This document shows, in pieces, positions 32,928-58,350 of a DNA stretch of 64,000 nt. The translations under genes were made by a program, and so were the position numbers. Origin of the DNA: Polyangiaceae bacterium (GTDB lineage Bacteria; Myxococcota_A; Polyangia; Polyangiales; Polyangiaceae); assembly GCA_965222375.1 (NCBI GenBank), contig CBDCTZ010000013.1, positions 704,001-768,000 of the forward strand, given 5' to 3'. The notes beneath the pieces were generated by a model. It saw nothing but the letters and a program-made list of their open reading frames with translations. It ran no database searches and had not been told where the DNA came from. Numbering within the stretch: position 1 is the first letter of the stretch; each line of letters begins with the position of its first letter.

Positions 32928-33510
32928 GTTCGCCCCCGATCAAGAACAGTTTTTCACGCGCGGAAACCTTGGTCAAAAAATGGTTTCGCGGAGCGAGCTT
33001 GGCGGCTAACTCCGCGGGCGTGTACACCACTGCGTTCACCTCGCGGCGAGTTTCTTCCTCCGCGCCGCGTATTGCGTCGACGACTTCCGCAAACGTTACG
33101 TCTCCAACAACGAGCAGGTCGATGTCACTGTGTTCGTTCTCGGTGCCTCGAGCCAACGATCCAAAAATGAAGGCGACCTCGATGCGATCGGTCAGCGGCA
33201 CGAGTGCTTGCGCCAAGACCGCCGCAGCTCCCAGTGTCTTGCGCACGATCGTCCGCAACTCTTCGAAGATGGGGCATGCAGCGTCAGCTTGAAAGTAGAC
33301 GTGCTGGCCATCGCGGGTTCGTCGGATGATGTTCGCGCGAGAAAGCCGCTCGAGTTCTCGCTGGATGCTGCCGACGCCGAGTCCCGTCAGCGACACGATT
33401 TCCCGCAAGTAGAAGCGCCGATGCGGTTGACCGAAGAGCAGCCCCAGCACGCCCTGCCGCGCCTTGGGGAAAAGGGCGGCCGGTATCGCACTGGCGACGA
33501 ATGAACCCAT
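32899..33510 (-). CDS. HTH + minimal nucleotidyltransferase (MNT) antitoxin-like protein
   Basis: Winged-HTH YLREIVSLTGLGVGSIQRELERL; FGSLARG...SDIDLLVVG. Confidence 0.88.
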   Translation of the reverse strand: MGSFVASAIPAALFPKARQGVLGLLFGQPHRRFYLREIVSLTGLGVGSIQRELERLSRANIIRRTRDGQHVYFQADAACPIFEELRTIVRKTLGAAAVLAQALVPLTDRIEVAFIFGSLARGTENEHSDIDLLVVGDVTFAEVVDAIRGAEEETRREVNAVVYTPAELAAKLAPRNHFLTKVSAREKLFLIGGEREFAALSRQ

Positions 33511-33541
33511 TATGGGTACATTTGTACTCGAATTGAGTACA
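33505..33541. promoter_or_regulatory. Overlapping palindromes at the MNT gene start (putative autorepression operator)
   Basis: acccat-t-atgggt; gggtaca-tt-tgtactc; tgtactc-gaatt-gagtaca. Confidence 0.65.
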
Positions 33542-33589
33542 CCTAGCAACCTTCGCCAGTGCCGGGGCCTGGCCCCGCACTAGACTAGG

Positions 33590-33621
33590 GGCCCAACGCC
33601 GCCCCGGCGCCACGACCCCAA
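33590..33621 (-). repeat. Inverted copy of the REP-like repeat
   Basis: ggcccaacgccgcccc is the exact reverse complement of 31298-31313; gaccccaa matches 31266-31273. Confidence 0.7.
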
Positions 33622-33657
33622 CCAACCAACACCATCAAACGCCGGGCTGATTCGACT

Positions 33658-34686
33658 TCAGGGCTTCCAGTCCGGAGGCGGGCTGGGGACGGGGATGCAT
33701 TTCTGCTCGGTGGCCAAAGCGCTGTAGGCGCTTTCAGCGGGATAGGAATAGCCGAAGAGCATGCACATTTCGTTGTCGCCAATGCCTTCGACGATGGTCT
33801 TGTTGTGGGTGTTCTTCCAGGTGCAGCCAAAGCGCCAGCCGTTGCCTTGGGAAAGGTCGATGGCGGGCTCGTAGGAGTAGATGTCACTGGCTTCGTCGAA
33901 ACCGGTGTCTTCGAGGAAGATTTCGCCGTCCTTGTCGCCGCCCACGTAGCTGATGAAGAAGCGCTCGCCCAGGGCATGCATGTGCGGCATCGCGTCGACG
34001 ATCTTCATGGGCTCGCCGATCCAACACTCTGTTTCGACGGAATGCTCACTCTTCGGGGGAATTTCGAAGTCCTGAATCGCCCAGAAGAATGGCGCGATCT
34101 CCTGAGTCACGTCCTCCTCAGGCACGGTGAACCACTCGTACTTGGGGGCGACGGTGATGGGTTTTGCGGACGTGTTCAGGTAGTGCAGCCGGGCAACGAT
34201 CTCGTAGCCATCCTTGATGCGATAGGCCTGACCTGGACTGAAACGACGCCACTCGGTGCCGACCAGCTGCGTGGAAGAGCCGAAAAGGACGCTGCCCCCA
34301 CCAAGCACGTCCCCGGCTTCGCCGCCGAAGACTCCACCCTTGCCCTTTTCGCAGGGGCGGATCCCTTCACCGGTCTTCTTGCGAGTGGTCAGATTGCCGT
34401 GATGGAGGCCAGCGGTGGTGGTCAGGCTGGCTCCGCCCACGAAGCGACTCGGCCCGTTCAGCTCGAGGGGGAAAACCCAACACGGAGTCTTTTCGTCCCC
34501 GGGCTGCAGCGTGATTTCCGGGACCTGAATCGAAAAACCACCGATCGCGTTCGGCGGCGGTCCCTGCCCAGGCAGGGTGCCCGGCATGCCAGCGCCGCCG
34601 CCAGGCGTCGTCGGCTCGGACTCGGACCCACAACCCGACAGCAACGCCAGGCAGACAGCCGGTAGAAAAGGAATCAAGTAGCGCAT
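33658..34686 (-). CDS. Lipoprotein with a copper type II ascorbate-dependent monooxygenase (PHM/DBH)-like domain
   Basis: LLSGC lipobox; GLHH, RLHYLN, MPHMH, NEMC copper-ligand motifs. Confidence 0.8.
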   Translation of the reverse strand: MRYLIPFLPAVCLALLSGCGSESEPTTPGGGAGMPGTLPGQGPPPNAIGGFSIQVPEITLQPGDEKTPCWVFPLELNGPSRFVGGASLTTTAGLHHGNLTTRKKTGEGIRPCEKGKGGVFGGEAGDVLGGGSVLFGSSTQLVGTEWRRFSPGQAYRIKDGYEIVARLHYLNTSAKPITVAPKYEWFTVPEEDVTQEIAPFFWAIQDFEIPPKSEHSVETECWIGEPMKIVDAMPHMHALGERFFISYVGGDKDGEIFLEDTGFDEASDIYSYEPAIDLSQGNGWRFGCTWKNTHNKTIVEGIGDNEMCMLFGYSYPAESAYSALATEQKCIPVPSPPPDWKP

Positions 34687-34796
34687 GACTCAGCAGGCGA
34701 CGCCGCCTGCATCCAGTGTGACGCATTTCGGCGCTGCCGCGCAGTTCTATACGTTCTGCATTTACAGAATGCAAGTCGCGAAAAAAACCCGACCAC

Positions 34797-34838
34797 AAAA
34801 AGGGTCCAGGGCGACCCGGTCACCCGGATCGCCCTGGA
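34797..34838 (-). terminator. Intrinsic terminator on the minus strand
   Basis: Minus strand reads tccagggcgatccgg-GTGA-ccgggtcgccctgga (15 bp, one U-G pair), then ccc-ttttt and a further T7 run. Confidence 0.8.
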
Positions 34839-36600
34839 GGAAGTTTACGTTTTGCCGATGGTGGACGTCTGTCCCGACATTTCTGCCTCGCATGCATCAG
34901 CCTCCCTCGACACGCTTGCTGCGTTCCGAAGGCATCATCATCTCAATGTGGGCTCTCTATCCCCAGGACCCGCCAATTCGCGCTGGCTTGATCCGGGCAG
35001 GGAGCAGAGTCGTTAGCTCGTGCTCGCTTCGGCGAAGAGCGCCGACGATGCACCTCTGTTTCTACATCCGCCACATTTCTGCGACGGCGCGTGTGCTGAC
35101 CTCCCGCGTCGAATCGACTGGAAAAGCCTTTACCGCCATAACCGCTCAGCCTCTGACGTTTTATGTCGCCTCACAGACACCGCAGGCAGCGCTTCAGTCG
35201 CTGCTCACAGCTGGCTAATTCGTCGTAAACGCTTGCGCGCTCCGTCTCGAACTTCGCATTCACCTGCTTGGCCAGAGCTGCGCTGACACCGAACGGATTA
35301 AGATCAGTGCTGCTCACAACTCAAAACGCCTCGAACCGTACTAGACAGGAACCCCGCAGGTTACCCCGCGGATCGACACTTATCGTTCGTTGTTCACGAA
35401 TTAACAAGCATCGCGCACCCGTTCGCCTGACTCGCACCGCGACAGTTCTTTCAAAACTGCCTCGGCCACCATCGTGCTAGACCGCATGTTACGTGCGCCT
35501 TACGGCACTCGCTCACACGGCCAAAGATGCGTCCGGCCGGTTCGTGCAACCCACATGTCAAAGAAGAGCACCCGAATTCATATGTGAAAATCTTCCCGCG
35601 CAAGGCGAGAGATGAGCGCTTTCACTTCACGGCAAGAAGCGCCCGCTTCGGTCGGCAATGAATAGATTTGTTTTTACCTCTCCGAGTTCAACCAACCGCT
35701 TTTTAGGCGTGTTGAATCCGGCGACGTAGAGGGCCGACCTCTGACGCCTTCGTCACCGCCACTTCCGAACCCCGATCTCTCGAAAGCCCTTCCGTGACGA
35801 CCAAGACCGCCTCCACGACCCATCCGTGAAGATGAACCGCTTGCAGCAACCCAAGGCGCCTTCCACCGACGAGGAGACTTTCTAGGTCCCTTTGCGAGCT
35901 TAAGGTGAGAACTCACGTCCCCTGCCCGCTCACGACGCCATTTCGCTCGCCCCGATGTTTCCACCCGGGTTCGCTAGATTCTGCCACTCGCCCTAGCCGC
36001 AACCAGGGTTTGCGTCCGAATCCGACGCCGCTCGTCAACTTCTGCTTTCAAAACACATGATCGAGCACACCAACTCAGCTCGACTCCTCACACGGAACCA
36101 CGCTTTAACGCATCCCGCTGCCCCAAGCCCGAGGGCTTGTTGCCGTGAGCGACACGACACCGGAGTTACCCCCGGCTGGCCCGCGAAGGACCTGCCGCAT
36201 CGGCCGAGAACAGTGGAGCCAGCTGTGCGTACTGCGACGCAGAGGCCGACTCGTGCCGTTCTCGAACACCTCTTTGTCGCGAGTCATCTGCCGGTCCGGG
36301 GCTGAAGTTAATTCATCCGGCGGCCAGGATGCTCGCCAAGGCCCCTCCGCTTCACCGTCCGCGCGAACGGAACAGGCTGGCCGAGAGACCGAGGTGTCTG
36401 ACTACTCTAGGGGGCCAAGCCGAGGGCAAGCTCGGCAGGACCGGGACCGCCTATGAACCCCCACCCGCGCTCACGCGCTCAGTCGTTCGGTTTAGGTGGG
36501 GAGGTCAGTCCGCACGCCATTTTTCGCTCGGATGCTGGAGGGCGTTGAAGCGCCCAACTGCCCACTGGGCAGTTGGTCCCAACTGAAATCCGGCGGTGGT
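34797..36600 (-). ncRNA. Candidate large (~1.8 kb) structured non-coding RNA of unknown class
   Basis: No credible CDS; several minus-strand GNRA hairpins with G-U pairs; two segments with shared ordered motifs; terminator at the 3' end. The 5' end is approximate. Confidence 0.65.
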
Positions 36601-36779
36601 TCTACCGTGTCGGTGGAAAAGGCTTGCGACCTTTCCGAACCCGACCGGTGCTCCACGGCGCCCCTGGGTTGTCAACGAACCGTTCGCTTGTTGGCAGATG
36701 TGCCGCGAACTTCCGAAAACAGTTATGCCTCGAAGGGCCCATGCTGCGCAACACAAAACAACTTTCGTTTCGGAATTTG

Positions 36780-36799
36780 TTATCCACAGGCTATCCCCA
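36780..36799 (+). promoter_or_regulatory. Perfect DnaA box TTATCCACA plus an adjacent 2-mismatch box
   Basis: ttatccaca at 36780-36788 and ctatcccca at 36791-36799. Confidence 0.45.
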
Positions 36800-37049
36800 G
36801 GTTGATGATGAGCGCCTCGACGTGGGCGCGGAGCTATTGATTCAAGTGCTTGAAGTCATTGCTAATTGTAGCGAGTCGCAGAGTTCCGCCGAGCGCCATT
36901 AGCTGCACTGTTGCATTTGTTTATATCATTTGTTTATCGTGTCTTAAGTCAATAAGAAAGCGTGTTTGATGCTTCGTCTGAGCAGAAGCTTGGCGCCGGC
37001 TGACGGCATCGCGCTCAAGGATCTCCAAACAGCACCGTTCAGCTGATTC

Positions 37050-38324
37050 ATGGTGGCCCACGCTCCGAGCTATGCCCTCACACCCCAAACAGCAGTGACC
37101 GAACGACCCCGGAGTGAACGGACTACATCCGCCCACCCTGCGCCTCACAGCATCAGCTCCGTTTCCCGCACGGCCAAGCGTGGCTCGGTGCTTGTCGTGG
37201 ATGACGATGCCATGCTGCGCCGCAGTCTCGATCGCGCTCTGTCCGCGGAAGGCTACGAAGTCGTGACATGCCCAGACGGTCACTCCGCCATCGCGCGCCT
37301 GATTGAGCGGCCCGTGGATGTGATCGTGAGCGATATCGCGATGCCGGGAATGGACGGGATCCAGCTGCTCCGCGAAGTACGCACCCACGACCTTCACGTA
37401 CCGGTCGTCCTGATCACTGGCGAGCCTGCGGTGTCGACCGCAGTTCAAGCGCTCGAGTACGGAGCGTTCCACTACTTGACGAAACCGGTGGACCCCCACG
37501 AGCTGGACAAGGTCATCGAGCGTGGCGCACGCCTTCACCGAATGGCCCAAGTCAAAGAGCAAGCGGCCGAGTTGCTCGGAAACCGTGGGGGCAGAGCGGC
37601 GGATCGTGCGGGCCTGGAAGCCAGCTTCGAGGGCGCACTGGCCACGCTCTGGATCGCCTACCAGCCCATCGTTTGCGCGCGAAACCAGACCATCTTCGGC
37701 CACGAGGCGCTGCTCCGCAGCGATGAGCCCAGCCTACCTCACCCGGGTGCCGTCATCGACGCGGCCGAACGCCTGGGGGAACTGCAAAAACTCGGCCGCG
37801 CGATCCGAGATCGTGCAGCTGTGCCTGCGCAGGAGCGGCCCCATGCTGCGAGAACCCTATTCGTCAATTTGCACGTCCACGACCTGCTTGACCCGACACT
37901 GGTCAACCCAGACGCGCCCCTGTCGAAGATCGCTGACCGAGTCGTGCTGGAGATCACCGAGCGCTCGAGCCTCGACGAGGTCAAGGACGTGCGCAATCGC
38001 GTACTGGCACTCCGGGAGATGGGTTTCCGAATCGCCGTCGACGACCTGGGTGCAGGCTACGCAGGACTAACCAGCTTCGCTCAGTTGGAGCCGGAGGTCG
38101 TGAAACTCGACATGAGTCTAGTGCGCGACGTGCACCGCTCCTCCACGAAGCAGAAGGTCATTCGGTCGATGGCCAGGCTGTGCCAGGACATGGGAATGCT
38201 CGTGGTCGGTGAGGGCGTCGAGAACGCCGAGGAGCGCGATACGCTGATTGAGCTGGGCTGCGACCTGTTGCAAGGCTTCTACTTCGCGAAACCCGCACGA
38301 CCGTTTCCGAGCGTGAGGTTCTGA
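37050..38324 (+). CDS. Response regulator receiver-EAL c-di-GMP phosphodiesterase
   Basis: VLVVDDD, SDIAMP, YLTKP; HEALLR, LEITE, DDLGAGY, KLD, GEGVE, QGFYF. Confidence 0.92.
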   Translation: MVAHAPSYALTPQTAVTERPRSERTTSAHPAPHSISSVSRTAKRGSVLVVDDDAMLRRSLDRALSAEGYEVVTCPDGHSAIARLIERPVDVIVSDIAMPGMDGIQLLREVRTHDLHVPVVLITGEPAVSTAVQALEYGAFHYLTKPVDPHELDKVIERGARLHRMAQVKEQAAELLGNRGGRAADRAGLEASFEGALATLWIAYQPIVCARNQTIFGHEALLRSDEPSLPHPGAVIDAAERLGELQKLGRAIRDRAAVPAQERPHAARTLFVNLHVHDLLDPTLVNPDAPLSKIADRVVLEITERSSLDEVKDVRNRVLALREMGFRIAVDDLGAGYAGLTSFAQLEPEVVKLDMSLVRDVHRSSTKQKVIRSMARLCQDMGMLVVGEGVENAEERDTLIELGCDLLQGFYFAKPARPFPSVRF

Positions 38325-38325
38325 G

Positions 38326-39405
38326 ATGGCTTTGCGCTCCTATGCGCCACCGTCCTTTCAGCCTGAGTCCGGGGCGCGCTCCGCCCTCTTGCCGGAGCCG
38401 CCGCCCTCGGCTGCCTACCCAGCCTCGAGTACGGGAACGACCACGCCAGAAATGGCCGCTGTGCGCGTGCCCGCTTCGGACATTCCTGGCGACAACCTCG
38501 ACTCGTGGGAGGAAATCACGGACGTCGCGCGCCTCACGGAGGTTGGAGAGCCCCCGGCGGCAGTGGATGGCCGGGATCGGGCAGTGCTTCTGCGCGCTGA
38601 CGGCGTGGGTGCGGGACAGGTCCTCTCCCTAGGTGCAGGAGGCGCCGTGGTGGGGCGAGCACCGGACGCAAGTATCCACCTCGATGACGCAGGAGTGAGC
38701 CGCCGCCACGCCCGCTTGACGCCCACACTGTCGGGACGCCACTTCATCGAAGACCTCGATTCGAGCAACGGTACCTTCGTGAGGGGTCAACGTGTCGAAC
38801 GCGCCTGGCTTCAGGATGGCGACATGATCCAGCTGGGGCCGCGCGTCAGTTTTCGCTACGTCGTAGTCGATCAATCCGGCGAGGCGCTGTTTCGCCAGCT
38901 CTACCAGTCCAGCGTCCGGGATTCTCTGACGGGAGCGTACAACCGCCGACACTTCGACGAGCGCCTGACCGCGGAGCTCGCCTACGCGGATCGGCACAGC
39001 ACTGATCTATCCCTGGTCTTGTTCGATATCGACCACTTCAAGAAGGTCAACGACAACTTCGGTCATCCTGCCGGCGACGCCGTTCTGTGCCACGTCGTCA
39101 AGCTGGCTCAACGCGAACTTCGAGCGGAGGACGTCTTTGCCCGCTACGGTGGCGAGGAGTTCGCGATGTTGCTGCGAGGGGTTGGGCCGTCAGGCGCCGT
39201 CCGCGCAGCAAGTCGCATTCGAACGACGATCGAGGCAAACGCGAGCCAACACGAGGGCCGCATGATTTCTGTGACCGTGAGTGGCGGTGTCGCGTCGTTG
39301 AGCGAGACCGCAGAGCGCTCGGCTCAAACCCTGGTCGGGCGGGCAGATGCACGGCTGTATCGGGCCAAGCACGAGGGCCGCAACCGCATGATTTCGCGGG
39401 GCTAG
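38326..39405 (+). CDS. FHA-GGDEF diguanylate cyclase
   Basis: FHA motifs GR, SRRH, SSNGT; DIDHFKKVND; RAED (I-site); RYGGEEF. Confidence 0.92.
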   Translation: MALRSYAPPSFQPESGARSALLPEPPPSAAYPASSTGTTTPEMAAVRVPASDIPGDNLDSWEEITDVARLTEVGEPPAAVDGRDRAVLLRADGVGAGQVLSLGAGGAVVGRAPDASIHLDDAGVSRRHARLTPTLSGRHFIEDLDSSNGTFVRGQRVERAWLQDGDMIQLGPRVSFRYVVVDQSGEALFRQLYQSSVRDSLTGAYNRRHFDERLTAELAYADRHSTDLSLVLFDIDHFKKVNDNFGHPAGDAVLCHVVKLAQRELRAEDVFARYGGEEFAMLLRGVGPSGAVRAASRIRTTIEANASQHEGRMISVTVSGGVASLSETAERSAQTLVGRADARLYRAKHEGRNRMISRG

Positions 39406-58277: not shown

Positions 58278-58350
58278 GCCTCCGTAGCTCAGTGGATAGA
58301 GCAGTGGTTTCCTAAACCATTGGTCGCAAGTTCGACTCTTGCCGGAGGCG
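58278..58350 (+). tRNA. tRNA-Arg (anticodon CCT); CCA not encoded
   Basis: Acceptor gcctccg/cggaggc; D-arm gctcagtggatagagc; anticodon arm gtggt-ttCCTaa-accat; T-arm gcaag-ttcgact-cttgc. Confidence 0.95.

Follow-up and report, generated by a model that had tools for sequence, protein, structure and literature searches.

A probable gene for a very large structured non-coding RNA in Polyangiales, with a conserved DnaA-box-like motif upstream

Introduction

To our knowledge only a handful of bacterial non-coding RNAs (ncRNAs) exceed 500 nt. Those studied so far (rRNAs, RNase P, group II introns, OLE, GOLLD, ROOL) each proved to be a machine or to have an unexpected architecture. OLE, GOLLD and ROOL measure ~600–800 nt, and GOLLD and ROOL are found in phage or plasmid contexts. 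Group II introns are marked by a domain V hairpin, 5' GUGYG and 3' AY ends and host-gene exons, and often by a reverse-transcriptase ORF. Members of the myxobacterial order that hosts the locus described here have, as far as we know, the largest genomes among bacteria, and they show complex multicellular behaviour. A cryo-EM report (PMC12286853) presents OLE, ROOL and GOLLD as homo-oligomeric, RNA-only assemblies.

We followed up a preliminary description of a candidate large RNA in a 64,000-nt stretch of a Polyangiaceae genome (the window; all coordinates refer to it). We are confident that its minus strand from 36714 to 34797 encodes, as a single chromosomal copy, a stable and highly structured ncRNA of very large size (~1.9 kb), whose class is absent from Rfam 15.

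A gene-free gap with start and stop signals

The gap reported at 34687–37049 was confirmed: only short ORFs lie between the minus-strand gene at 33658–34686 and the plus-strand gene at 37050–38324. Within it the block 34793–36803 is conserved in all five congeners. The following features lie in or at the edge of this block.

34797–36714, minus: predicted primary transcript of the large ncRNA, ~1.92 kb, possibly extending to a second U-tract at 34781
36722–36751, minus: putative sigma-70-type promoter, proposed from conservation only (−35-like TTGCGC 36751–36746, 18-nt spacer, −10-like CATAAC 36727–36722)
36780–36788, minus: DnaA-box-like motif TGTGGATAA, exact 9-mer, start 74 bp upstream of the RNA start
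34805–34838, minus: intrinsic terminator stem-loop of 15 bp, 11 of them G-C, with a GUGA loop at 34823–34820 and tail CCCTTTTTGT
34781–34801, minus: post-terminator U-tracts (UUUUU 34801–34797, a small extra hairpin, UUUUUUU 34787–34781)

A terminator scan matched the 15-bp GUGA-capped hairpin, previously noted, at 34838–34805. On the transcribed strand it has the G+C-rich stem-loop followed by a U-tract that characterises rho-independent terminators. Every full-length homologue keeps the stem with its U-tract, 8 of the pairs covarying; in other homologues the U-tract directly follows the stem. Of the extent first claimed, 34797–36600, the 3' side stands (terminator U-tracts at 34797 or 34781), but the 5' side must be moved out to the conserved start at 36714. 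A separate conserved palindromic promoter-like motif sits between the terminator and the downstream minus-strand gene (33658–34686).

The primary transcript probably starts at the invariant GGAAGUUCGC. Upstream, 34 loci share a promoter consensus, TTTTttgtTGc ... cATAA, whose distance from GGAAG is constant. The window's own copy fell below the consensus thresholds of a sigma-70 promoter scan, and a better consensus match occurs ~210 bp further upstream (36952–36925), outside the conserved block.

The DnaA box consensus of E. coli and many other bacteria is TTATCCACA. The exact TGTGGATAA 9-mer occurs only 10 times in the 10.56-Mb genome; one other copy precedes the dnaA match by ~450 bp. At 36 of 38 homologous loci the interval from −150 to −1 held a box in the same orientation with no more than one mismatch, as against 47 of 2059 background windows. 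Its usual start among the 38 loci is −74, and a second box is often found at −97. The box thus holds a conserved position relative to the promoter, the sequence mark of a DnaA-regulated promoter, which suggests that DnaA may bind there. A positional link of the ncRNA to oriC or dnaA was rejected, dnaA being on a different contig (C15).

Homologues are confined to one order

Homologues of 69–85% identity over ~2 kb were found in 5/5 congeners, and the window's own genome has one copy. Searching with the 5' 21-mer gave 25 further loci, of which 13 come from MAGs whose titles name Polyangiaceae, Myxococcales or delta proteobacterium. Homologues are 1.5–2.4 kb long and occur once per genome; the distance from GGAAG to the terminator stem is 1669–1938 nt. 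One locus (L034) shares the 5' 21-mer and was left out of the alignment, its 3' end and terminator being unaligned. Two partial contigs (L027 and L032) were kept in the 23-row alignment, L032 being excluded from A1.

For wider surveys we built a covariance model, R1, on the most conserved part of the RNA.

35411–35580, minus: most conserved core, junction of domains II and III, basis of covariance model R1

Of 151 sampled genomes of the family (Polyangiaceae by MAG titles), 39 had an R1 match, in each case a single one; they represent 28 of 89 genera. In a class-wide sample R1 matched 6/6 genomes of the sister family (f9) and none in 28 other families. The ncRNA is confined to one order, a group of soil and sediment myxobacteria.

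Covariation supports a minus-strand RNA

Structure was predicted with RNAalifold from a sequence-based MAFFT alignment of 23 sequences of 48–98% identity, and individual helices that have few covarying pairs could be mistaken. Folded as the RNA strand, the alignment scored −941.5, with 589 consensus pairs, 212 of them covarying, and 23 strongly supported helices. Its reverse complement scored −648, with 107 covarying pairs and 7 strongly supported helices, and five column shuffles only −351 to −369, with 30–45 covarying pairs and 0–1 strongly supported helices. The preliminary description had looked to homologues and their covariation to decide the matter; homologues exist, and their covariation is far above controls.

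The core was scored separately. It has 33 pairs, 21 with compensatory double changes; 94.9% of cells paired, compared with 34–42% when the partner was slid, and 0/500 shuffles reached any of five measures. In 13 held-out homologues, 41–52% identical to the window's copy, 55–81% of cells paired versus 33–47% with the partner slid. Compensatory changes have maintained the secondary structure in two families of the order. Covariation beyond controls together with an absent coding signal is what is generally expected of a structured ncRNA.

The G-U asymmetry first noted in three hairpins extends to the whole RNA: GU/UG made up 16.0% of 12,911 pair cells and AC/CA 2.9%. Single-sequence folding of domain III pointed the same way, with −260.4 kcal/mol on the minus strand (z −3.18, 0/20 shuffles as good) versus −190.9 kcal/mol on the plus strand (z +1.13, 19/20 shuffles as good). 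The minus-strand assignment is upheld by the agreement of G-U asymmetry, alignment-fold energy and the orientation of promoter and terminator. A plus-strand RNA was rejected on the alignment fold, the G-U asymmetry and the domain III fold energy.

Predicted architecture

In the predicted fold, three domains of ~500–630 nt, each closed by a long-range helix, are arranged around a highly conserved central junction, and the whole would be enclosed by two terminal 5'–3' helices, T1 and T2.

36705–36714, minus: terminal helix T1, 5' arm, pairing with 34848–34839
34839–34848, minus: terminal helix T1, 3' arm
36697–36704, minus: terminal helix T2, 5' arm GGCACAUC, partner 34939–34931
34931–34939, minus: terminal helix T2, 3' arm GAUGAUGCC, with one bulged A
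36069–36695, minus: domain I, closing helix 36695–36677 / 36086–36069, 18 bp
35568–36068, minus: domain II, closing helix 36068–36053 / 35584–35568, 14 bp
34946–35556, minus: domain III, closing helix 35556–35546 / 34956–34946, 10 bp, 6 covarying pairs

T1 has 8 pairs, standard in ~20 of 21 rows with letters; its 5' arm is invariant and the partner is C or U. T2, also of 8 pairs, has 2% unpaired cells and is almost invariant on both sides. Neither helix shows covariation, because both are nearly invariant. Inside the domains, the better supported helices are, with numbers of covarying pairs in parentheses, 36390–36383/36347–36340 (6) and 36202–36194/36158–36150 (6) in domain I; 36039–36031/35873–35865 (6), 35860–35853/35750–35743 (6) and 35801–35791/35765–35755 (7) in domain II; and 35330–35323/35162–35155 (7) and 35310–35302/35294–35286 (6) in domain III.

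All seven local hairpins of the preliminary description are present in the sequence where it placed them, and in a comparison with 22 homologues four are conserved with compensatory changes: ccgcggg-GUAA-cctgcgg (35354–35371); ccgggg-GUAA-ctccgg (36160–36175), which is expanded in other clades; gcc-GNRA-ggc (35497–35506), with GNRA in 83% of rows; and caagcc-loop-ggcttg (36124–36139). The other three, the GAAA hairpin at 35068–35087, the GUGA hairpin at 36467–36478 and the 10-bp hairpin at 36554–36576, are limited to the window's own genus or lie in variable regions. A 9-bp long-range complement, 34856–34864 with 35466–35474, had also been proposed. The window does contain it, but it was rejected: just 56% of cells pair when homologues are compared, and both arms are occupied by other helices.

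Representation in RNA libraries

Twenty sequencing runs contained part of the stretch, 8 of them recorded as RNA. In four RNA runs from three studies, contigs of 95–99% identity covered 34883–36705 at summed depths of ~70–1080. This evidence consists of assembled contigs, which are strandless and from which true level is not readable; the last ~90 nt and the terminator are uncovered.

34883–36705, minus: near-identical high-depth metatranscriptome contigs, 5' molecule end at 36704/36705

Run X5 gave a contig of 1798 nt (34903–36697, depth 893). Run X7 covered 34883–36105 and 36170–36704 (depth ~1000–1080), and run X15 covered 34993–36182 and 36153–36704 (depth ~200–233). A divergent relative of 1827 nt, at depth 369, was assembled from run X11. 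In X5, X7 and X15 the Illumina adapter abuts 36704/36705, so that the 5' end in the RNA libraries coincides with the T1/T2 border. The contig stops at 34883–34993, being contig data, do not mark a 3' end. The bins over the flanking genes (33000–34869 and 36740–38600) had depth 0 in X5, X7 and X15, while X11 reached no more than 1; for contig data this is no proof of silence. For the predicted minus-strand transcript ending near 34797, the high-depth, near-identical contigs show a defined end at the predicted 5' side; strand and 3' end lie beyond their reach.

The abundant form would begin 10 nt inside the primary transcript, at the T1/T2 border. This may mean that the terminal stem is processed, much as happens in rRNA precursors, or that the extreme 5' end was lost, as is usual, during library preparation.

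Coding potential, known RNA families and neighbours

All six frames of the ncRNA region are rich in stops, with 8–27 stops per sense frame of the window's copy, and among 24 sequences there was no stop-free frame and no long ORF. Period-3 power was 0.16 for the ncRNA (window maximum 2.7), compared with 110.8 in the adjacent REC-EAL gene. A protein-coding reading, which would have refuted the preliminary description, is rejected by the stops in every frame and the lack of codon periodicity.

An Rfam 15 scan of the 64-kb window matched only a tRNA, at 58278–58350. At E≤10, the region 34400–37300 yielded only sX12, at 19 bits against a gathering score of 106, a 29-nt look-alike on the terminator hairpin. 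Rfam 15 families including GOLLD, ROOL, OLE, HEARO, rRNAs, RNase P, group I/II introns and riboswitches were unmatched. The earlier impression, formed from the sequence alone, that signatures of rRNA, RNase P and group I/II introns are missing agrees with this outcome, and the lack of any match at gathering score supports an unrecognised class. RNase P, 6S and tmRNA were found elsewhere in the genome in canonical form, which rules out the ncRNA as a replacement for any of the three. No description of a large Polyangiaceae or myxobacterial ncRNA was found in the open literature searched.

No recurrent protein family adjoins the ncRNA across divergent lineages. An operon encoding REC-EAL and FHA-GGDEF proteins adjoins it in closer clades only; neighbours in other lineages are MscS, radical-SAM or unrelated genes. 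The minus-strand gene at 33658–34686 is Cu2_monoox_C-like and stands 3' of the ncRNA in the window's genus and at loci L028 and L061. All-against-all BLAST of 84 flanking ORFs and 5 window genes gave small lineage-local groups only. Since no neighbour family is consistent, gene context points to no protein partner; adjacent conserved partner genes of the OLE type were not seen at the ncRNA loci examined. In one genome (G126) a major-vault-protein-like gene (MVP_shoulder, E 2e-32) abuts the ncRNA. A vault link was dropped, an MVP_shoulder search being unmatched in the window's genome, a weak result in that control genomes were unmatched too. A blastn-short search of the ncRNA against its own genome returned only chance-level off-target matches of 16–24 nt, E at least 0.06.

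Discussion

Its own promoter and terminator, covariation and the absence of a coding signal support reading the locus as a large standalone ncRNA, as first suggested. We lean, a little beyond an even chance, towards regarding it as the founding member of an undescribed class of 1.5–2.4 kb, the largest structured bacterial ncRNA besides rRNA: a ribosome-sized RNA or RNP machine of Polyangiales, catalytic or architectural, wired to DnaA and making up an estimated 0.05–3% of letters in four environmental RNA libraries. More tentatively, and at somewhat less than even weight, we propose an architectural role. The ncRNA may be the scaffold of a ribonucleoprotein particle, or a self-assembling RNA-only body like OLE, ROOL and GOLLD, a guess modelled on the assemblies of those three RNAs described in the cryo-EM report (PMC12286853). 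By binding the promoter at about −70 and −93, DnaA would link synthesis of the ncRNA to replication and growth status.

The same gene could instead encode a large ribozyme with its catalytic core at the central junction, rather than a passive scaffold. Conservation is indeed strongest in junction and linker regions at the fold centre and at the 5' end, much as rRNA, RNase P and group I/II introns are most conserved at the fold centre; several conserved GNRA-type loops might serve tertiary docking, and size and domain organisation resemble those of catalytic RNAs. We nevertheless consider a ribozyme unlikely: no Rfam ribozyme family is similar, no associated gene suggests a reaction, and there is no evident substrate or self-cleavage or ligation junction, the contig joints showing only a divergent homologue. 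We are equally doubtful of a regulator that titrates a protein (DnaA, RNA polymerase or a global RNA-binding protein) or base-pairs with targets. High abundance in RNA libraries would suit a titrating RNA and a DnaA-box promoter would permit feedback, but the conserved loops hold no repeated short motif of the CsrB type, extended complementarity elsewhere in the genome is lacking (best 16–24 nt, E at least 0.06), and a covarying three-domain fold of 1.9 kb far exceeds the needs of known sponges. That the class has already been described, though neither Rfam 15 nor the open literature searched contains it, is a smaller chance still. Large-RNA discovery is an active field, and the search covered open literature; on the other side, neither the open literature nor Rfam 15 gave a large Polyangiaceae or myxobacterial ncRNA.

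Two readings that deny a standalone functional RNA seem to us very improbable. One makes it a cis-acting leader or processed 5' UTR of the minus-strand gene at 33658–34686, which is on the same strand and directly downstream in the window's genus, L028 and L061. Against this, a strong conserved terminator closes the RNA, the Cu2_monoox_C-like gene is exchanged for others between lineages while the RNA persists, and a separate conserved palindromic promoter-like motif stands between terminator and gene. The other takes the region for a decayed protein gene or for a mobile ribozyme, such as a degenerate group II intron that lacks an ORF. Size and a multi-domain fold are reminiscent of group II introns, and the region is ORF-free; yet no Rfam intron or domain-V model matched even at E≤10, the RNA begins with GGAAG and has a promoter and a terminator of its own, the locus occurs once and keeps its synteny within the genus, period-3 signal and a conserved frame are both lacking, and purifying selection acts on base pairs. 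A group II intron in particular was rejected on the unmatched intron models, the 5' end GGAAGUUCGC, the lack of a long ORF and the single copy.

If the standalone ncRNA is as large as predicted, it would rank among the largest bacterial ncRNAs apart from ribosomal RNA. A 16S-sized RNA with a covariation-backed three-domain fold is a target for cryo-EM and genetics, as is its promoter with the fixed DnaA box, which makes a direct case for asking whether DnaA controls a non-coding RNA. The ncRNA may indicate lineage-specific cell biology invisible to protein-centred annotation. Genomes can be annotated for the ncRNA with the core model and the 5' signature GGAAGUUCGCGGCACAUC, which can also act as a filter or lineage marker in metatranscriptomes.

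Among known systems, OLE, GOLLD and ROOL are alike in being long, non-coding, multi-domain RNAs with intricate pairing and conserved GNRA-type loops. The preliminary suggestion of a size beyond theirs holds, the ncRNA being ~2–3 times longer than their ~600–800 nt. It differs from them in having no sequence or structure match and in being encoded once on the chromosome, in Polyangiales, behind a DnaA-box promoter. OLE has oap partner genes and this ncRNA has no conserved partner genes; unlike GOLLD and ROOL, it was seen in no phage or plasmid context. The IMES RNAs, credited to Weinberg and colleagues in 2009, are reportedly abundant RNAs of marine metatranscriptomes, small and present in Rfam. 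Both they and the ncRNA are strikingly abundant in environmental RNA libraries, but the ncRNA has no IMES match and can be assigned to a defined bacterial lineage and a defined locus in the genome. Like RNase P RNA, 6S RNA and tmRNA, it is a stable, structured and abundant RNA made from a standalone gene that has a promoter and terminator to itself, although it is 5–10 times larger and taxonomically narrow. Group II introns have a similar length, a multi-domain fold and long-range closing helices, but the ncRNA has no domain V, flanking exons, intron-encoded protein or extra copies, and has its own promoter. With 16S rRNA there is no homology, none of the observations ties the ncRNA to translation, and it is a single gene outside rRNA operons, found in one bacterial order only; yet the two are of comparable size, in the predicted fold the ncRNA, like 16S rRNA, has several domains, each with a long-range closing helix, around a conserved centre and pairs its 5' and 3' ends in a terminal stem inside which the abundant form would start, and both are very highly represented in RNA libraries.

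The gap and its homologues

In our genome set the window is G000:C13:704001-768000, from a genome of 10.56 Mb. The ORF-poor gap that the preliminary description had assigned to a large non-coding RNA was confirmed as 2.36 kb holding short ORFs only, between a Cu2_monoox_C-like gene (33658-34686, minus) and a REC-EAL gene (37050-38324, plus) that is followed by an FHA-GGDEF gene. Between ~35100 and 36300 C is enriched on the plus strand, making the minus strand G-rich.

Homologues of 34793-36803 were found in all five other species of the genus (69-85% identity), and the window's own genome has a single copy. Matches in other genera were patchy and led us to an invariant 5' block, which starts with GGAAG at 36714. 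Scanning for a 21-mer of this block located 12 additional metagenome contigs and, in the genome collection, 13 loci, each of which belongs to a MAG titled Polyangiaceae, Myxococcales or delta proteobacterium. After duplicate removal the alignment set held 23 sequences, two of them partial contigs, with pairwise identities of 48-98%. Measured from GGAAG up to where the terminator stem ends, the 21 full-length homologues are 1669-1938 nt long; the window's own RNA measures 1919 nt to its first U-tract. Locus L034, which has only the 5' block in common with the family, was excluded from the alignment. This 1742-nt metagenome contig begins exactly with the invariant 21-mer, its remainder being unalignable and without a terminator. 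Two readings fit it: a very divergent relative, or the motif used in an unrelated setting.

The region is non-coding, as had been proposed: stops interrupt all frames in 24 of 24 sequences examined, with 8-27 stops per sense frame in the window's own RNA. Three-base periodicity of column variability was absent (normalised power 0.16 for the whole RNA, 2.7 in the top 150-column window). The control, the adjacent REC-EAL gene aligned for nine of the same taxa, had a period-3 power of 110.8 and a window median of 20.6.

Covariation and strand

We call a pair covarying if both sides changed with at most two unpaired rows, and a helix strong if it has at least 5 bp, at least three covarying pairs and at most 10% unpaired cells. 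The homologues do covary, with more covarying pairs than either the reverse complement or column shuffles.

Table. RNAalifold predictions
RNA strand, 23 rows, 1920 well-occupied columns: energy -941.5; 589 pairs; 212 covarying; 23 strong helices
Reverse complement: energy -648; 479 pairs; 107 covarying; 7 strong helices
Five column shuffles: energy -351 to -369; 379-409 pairs; 30-45 covarying; 0-1 strong helices

The most conserved 170 nt (35411-35580), freshly aligned with MAFFT in 22 rows, contain 33 pairs, 21 of them with compensatory changes, and 94.9% of cells are paired; none of 500 shuffles attained any of five measures, and slid partners were 34-42% paired. Thirteen homologues found later by a covariance model of this core, 41-52% identical to the window's RNA, were added to the alignment as an out-of-sample set. 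In these, 55-81% of the predicted pair cells held standard pairs; with slid partners the figure was 33-47%.

The G-U asymmetry first read from individual hairpins extends to the whole alignment, G·U making up 16.0% and A·C 2.9% of 12,911 pair cells. Domain III alone folds at -260.4 kcal/mol on the minus strand (z -3.18, 0/20 shuffles as good) and at -190.9 on the plus strand (z +1.13, 19/20 shuffles as good). By the excess of G·U over A·C and by fold energy, the RNA strand is the minus strand.

Anatomy of the RNA

Two terminal helices, T1 and T2, enclose the whole molecule, with three domains within.

Table. Structural features, all on the minus strand
36714-36705 with 34848-34839: terminal helix T1
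36704-36697 with 34939-34931: terminal helix T2
36695-36069: domain I, long-range closing helix of 18 bp, 3 covarying pairs
36068-35568: domain II, long-range closing helix of 14 bp, 2 covarying pairs
35556-34946: domain III, long-range closing helix of 10 bp, 6 covarying pairs
36108-36103: GNRA-type loop GAAA, 18/23 rows
35632-35625: GNRA-type loop cGUGAa, 21/23 rows
35504-35499: GNRA loop, 83%
34983-34976: GNRA-type loop cGCGAa, 20/23 rows
34838-34805: terminator (terminator scan), 15 pairs, 11 of them G-C, GUGA loop, tail CCCTTTTTGT; loop GUGA/GCGA in 91%

The sequence is consistent with T1 and T2 pairing, which covariation leaves unproven because both helices are nearly invariant. The 5' end and the junction of domains II and III are the regions of highest sequence conservation. 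Every hairpin listed in the preliminary description is present in the sequence; four of them, like the terminator, are conserved and show compensatory changes, and three are genus-specific or lie in variable regions. The 9-bp long-range complement proposed there (34856-34864 with 35466-35474) pairs in 56% of cells, lacks conservation and was given up. A mini-hairpin, GACC-N-GGUC, and a first short U-tract are inserted at 34788-34805 (minus) in the window's genome only, between the terminator stem and a U7 tract with which the other homologues align.

Predicted promoter region

Across 34 loci anchored on GGAAG, the upstream consensus is TTTTttgtTGc at -44..-33 and cATAA at -13..-9. By this conservation the window has:

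36751-36746, minus: -35-like element TTGCGC
36727-36722, minus: -10-like element CATAAC, after an 18-nt spacer

The conserved pattern fits a sigma-70-type promoter with transcription starting at GGAAG; the window's own hexamers fail promoter-scan thresholds. The sole promoter-scan match, TTGACT-16-AATGAT at 36925-36952 (minus), lies in an unconserved A+T-rich spacer ~210 bp upstream of the RNA start, and could be an extra upstream promoter or a chance match.

Upstream of the -35 element is the word TGTGGATAA, the reverse complement of TTATCCACA, which we take to be the DnaA-box consensus. Allowing one mismatch, 36 of 38 loci have this box, always in one orientation, usually starting at -74 and often with a second at -97; the count includes loci that the core model, rather than the 5' block, had brought in. 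The background was 47 of 2059 windows of 150 nt. The 10.56-Mb genome has just 10 exact copies of the word; one is on another contig, where the dnaA match lies ~450 bp downstream of it. The box persists beside the RNA when another gene lies upstream, as in clade B, one lineage of carriers, with its MscS gene; it is therefore part of the RNA promoter. DnaA, whose box is recognised here by its motif, may set transcription of the RNA.

Matching contigs in public RNA libraries

Parts of the stretch occur in 20 public runs, eight of which are recorded as RNA, from marine and sediment metatranscriptomes. We compared four RNA runs from three studies, all as Logan contigs, with window 33000-38600; the contigs tabulated here are 95-99% identical to the window.

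Table. Metatranscriptome contigs matching the RNA
X5: 34903-36697, single 1798-nt contig, depth 893
X7: 34883-36105 and 36170-36704, depth about 1000-1080
X15: 34993-36182 and 36153-36704, depth about 200-233
X11: 35158-36558, depth 184

Illumina adapter letters directly abut 36704/36705 in contigs of X5, X7 and X15, so many sequenced molecules ended there, where T1 borders on T2 and 10 nt inward of the predicted RNA start. Second-strand synthesis in library preparation can lose the extreme 5' end; the observed end reflects either such loss or processing of the terminal stem. Contig depth, a poor measure of expression, together with run size puts the RNA's share of letters very roughly at 2.7% (X5), 0.9% (X7), 0.3% (X15) and 0.05% (X11). 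Another contig of the sediment run X11 (record 3, 1827 nt, depth 369) matches two short patches only, 34977-35038 and 35545-35574, and probably comes from a divergent homologue in another species of Polyangiales.

Distribution

The core model matched 39 of 151 sampled family genomes, each exactly once; among high-quality genomes of the family it matched 29 of 110, and among genera 28 of 89. In the class sample it matched two of eight further family genomes and all six genomes of f9, a sister family in the same order (E 1e-4 to 1e-7), and had no matches in the 28 other families sampled with this core-only model under stricter Infernal filters. Because of those filters and the core-only span, the counts are lower bounds, not evidence of absence. 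At loci found by the model, the core comes 475-1520 nt downstream of the 5' block and is followed ~600-680 nt later by a terminator where one was found, which implies RNAs of roughly 1.5-2.4 kb.

At four f9 loci (L045-L048, in genomes G264, G044, G230 and G296) the putative RNA is shorter, ~1.5 kb in L045, the 5' block reads GGAAG[G/A]TCGC, and an ORF of 750-820 aa without a Pfam match is always directly upstream. L046 and L047 are without a forward DnaA-like box and have TTTTCCACA in the opposite orientation at -57.

Flanking genes

The REC-EAL response regulator and FHA-GGDEF genes form a two-gene c-di-GMP module (37050-39405, plus) divergent from the RNA. This operon is the divergent 5' neighbour in the window's genus, except at locus L005, and in three further clades; it adjoins the RNA in four clades, and is absent there in clade B and more distant lineages. 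Neighbours in other lineages include MscS, FadB-like, radical-SAM and other genes, and an all-against-all comparison of flanking ORFs yielded no protein family common to the RNA flanks across divergent lineages.

In genome G126 an MVP-like ORF of 690 aa (L056:3179-5248, plus) lies directly 3' of the RNA homologue, convergent with it; its domain is the major-vault-protein shoulder (PF11978, E 2.3e-32). G126 is the one genome with such a gene beside the RNA; a search for the domain in the window's genome gave no match, and a vault link was dropped.

Between the terminator and the downstream gene is a palindromic motif, GCATTCTGTAAATGCAGAA...TATAGAAC (TTCTG-N6-CAGAA; 34745-34791, minus), conserved in all congeners. 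It also matches a second site in the window's own genome (C14:739097-739143) and further sites in genomes G001 and G003. The motif probably serves the Cu2_monoox_C-like gene as an operator or promoter element.

Possible function and comparison with known RNAs

The size and abundance of the RNA, its domain architecture and conserved core, and its docking-type loops and paired termini lead us to favour an architectural role, in which it would serve as an RNP scaffold or self-assemble. A ribozyme and a titrating regulator are live alternatives to this architectural reading; no other site in its genome has extended complementarity to the RNA.

The view that it belongs to no recognised class survived comparison with Rfam. 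A whole-window cmscan at gathering scores returned the tRNA gene at 58278-58350 (plus) alone, and at E<=10 the single row on 34400-37300, an sX12 look-alike at the terminator hairpin, scored 19 bits against a gathering score of 106. The genome encodes canonical RNase P RNA, 6S RNA and tmRNA at other loci, so the RNA replaces none of them. We found no description of such an RNA in the openly available full-text literature. The ncRNA-discovery paper PMC8632094 has zero occurrences of the looked-up terms, and passages of a second, 10.64898/2026.10.21.760802, gave no match either. Reserving a slim chance for a description that already exists, we rate this RNA as a new class.
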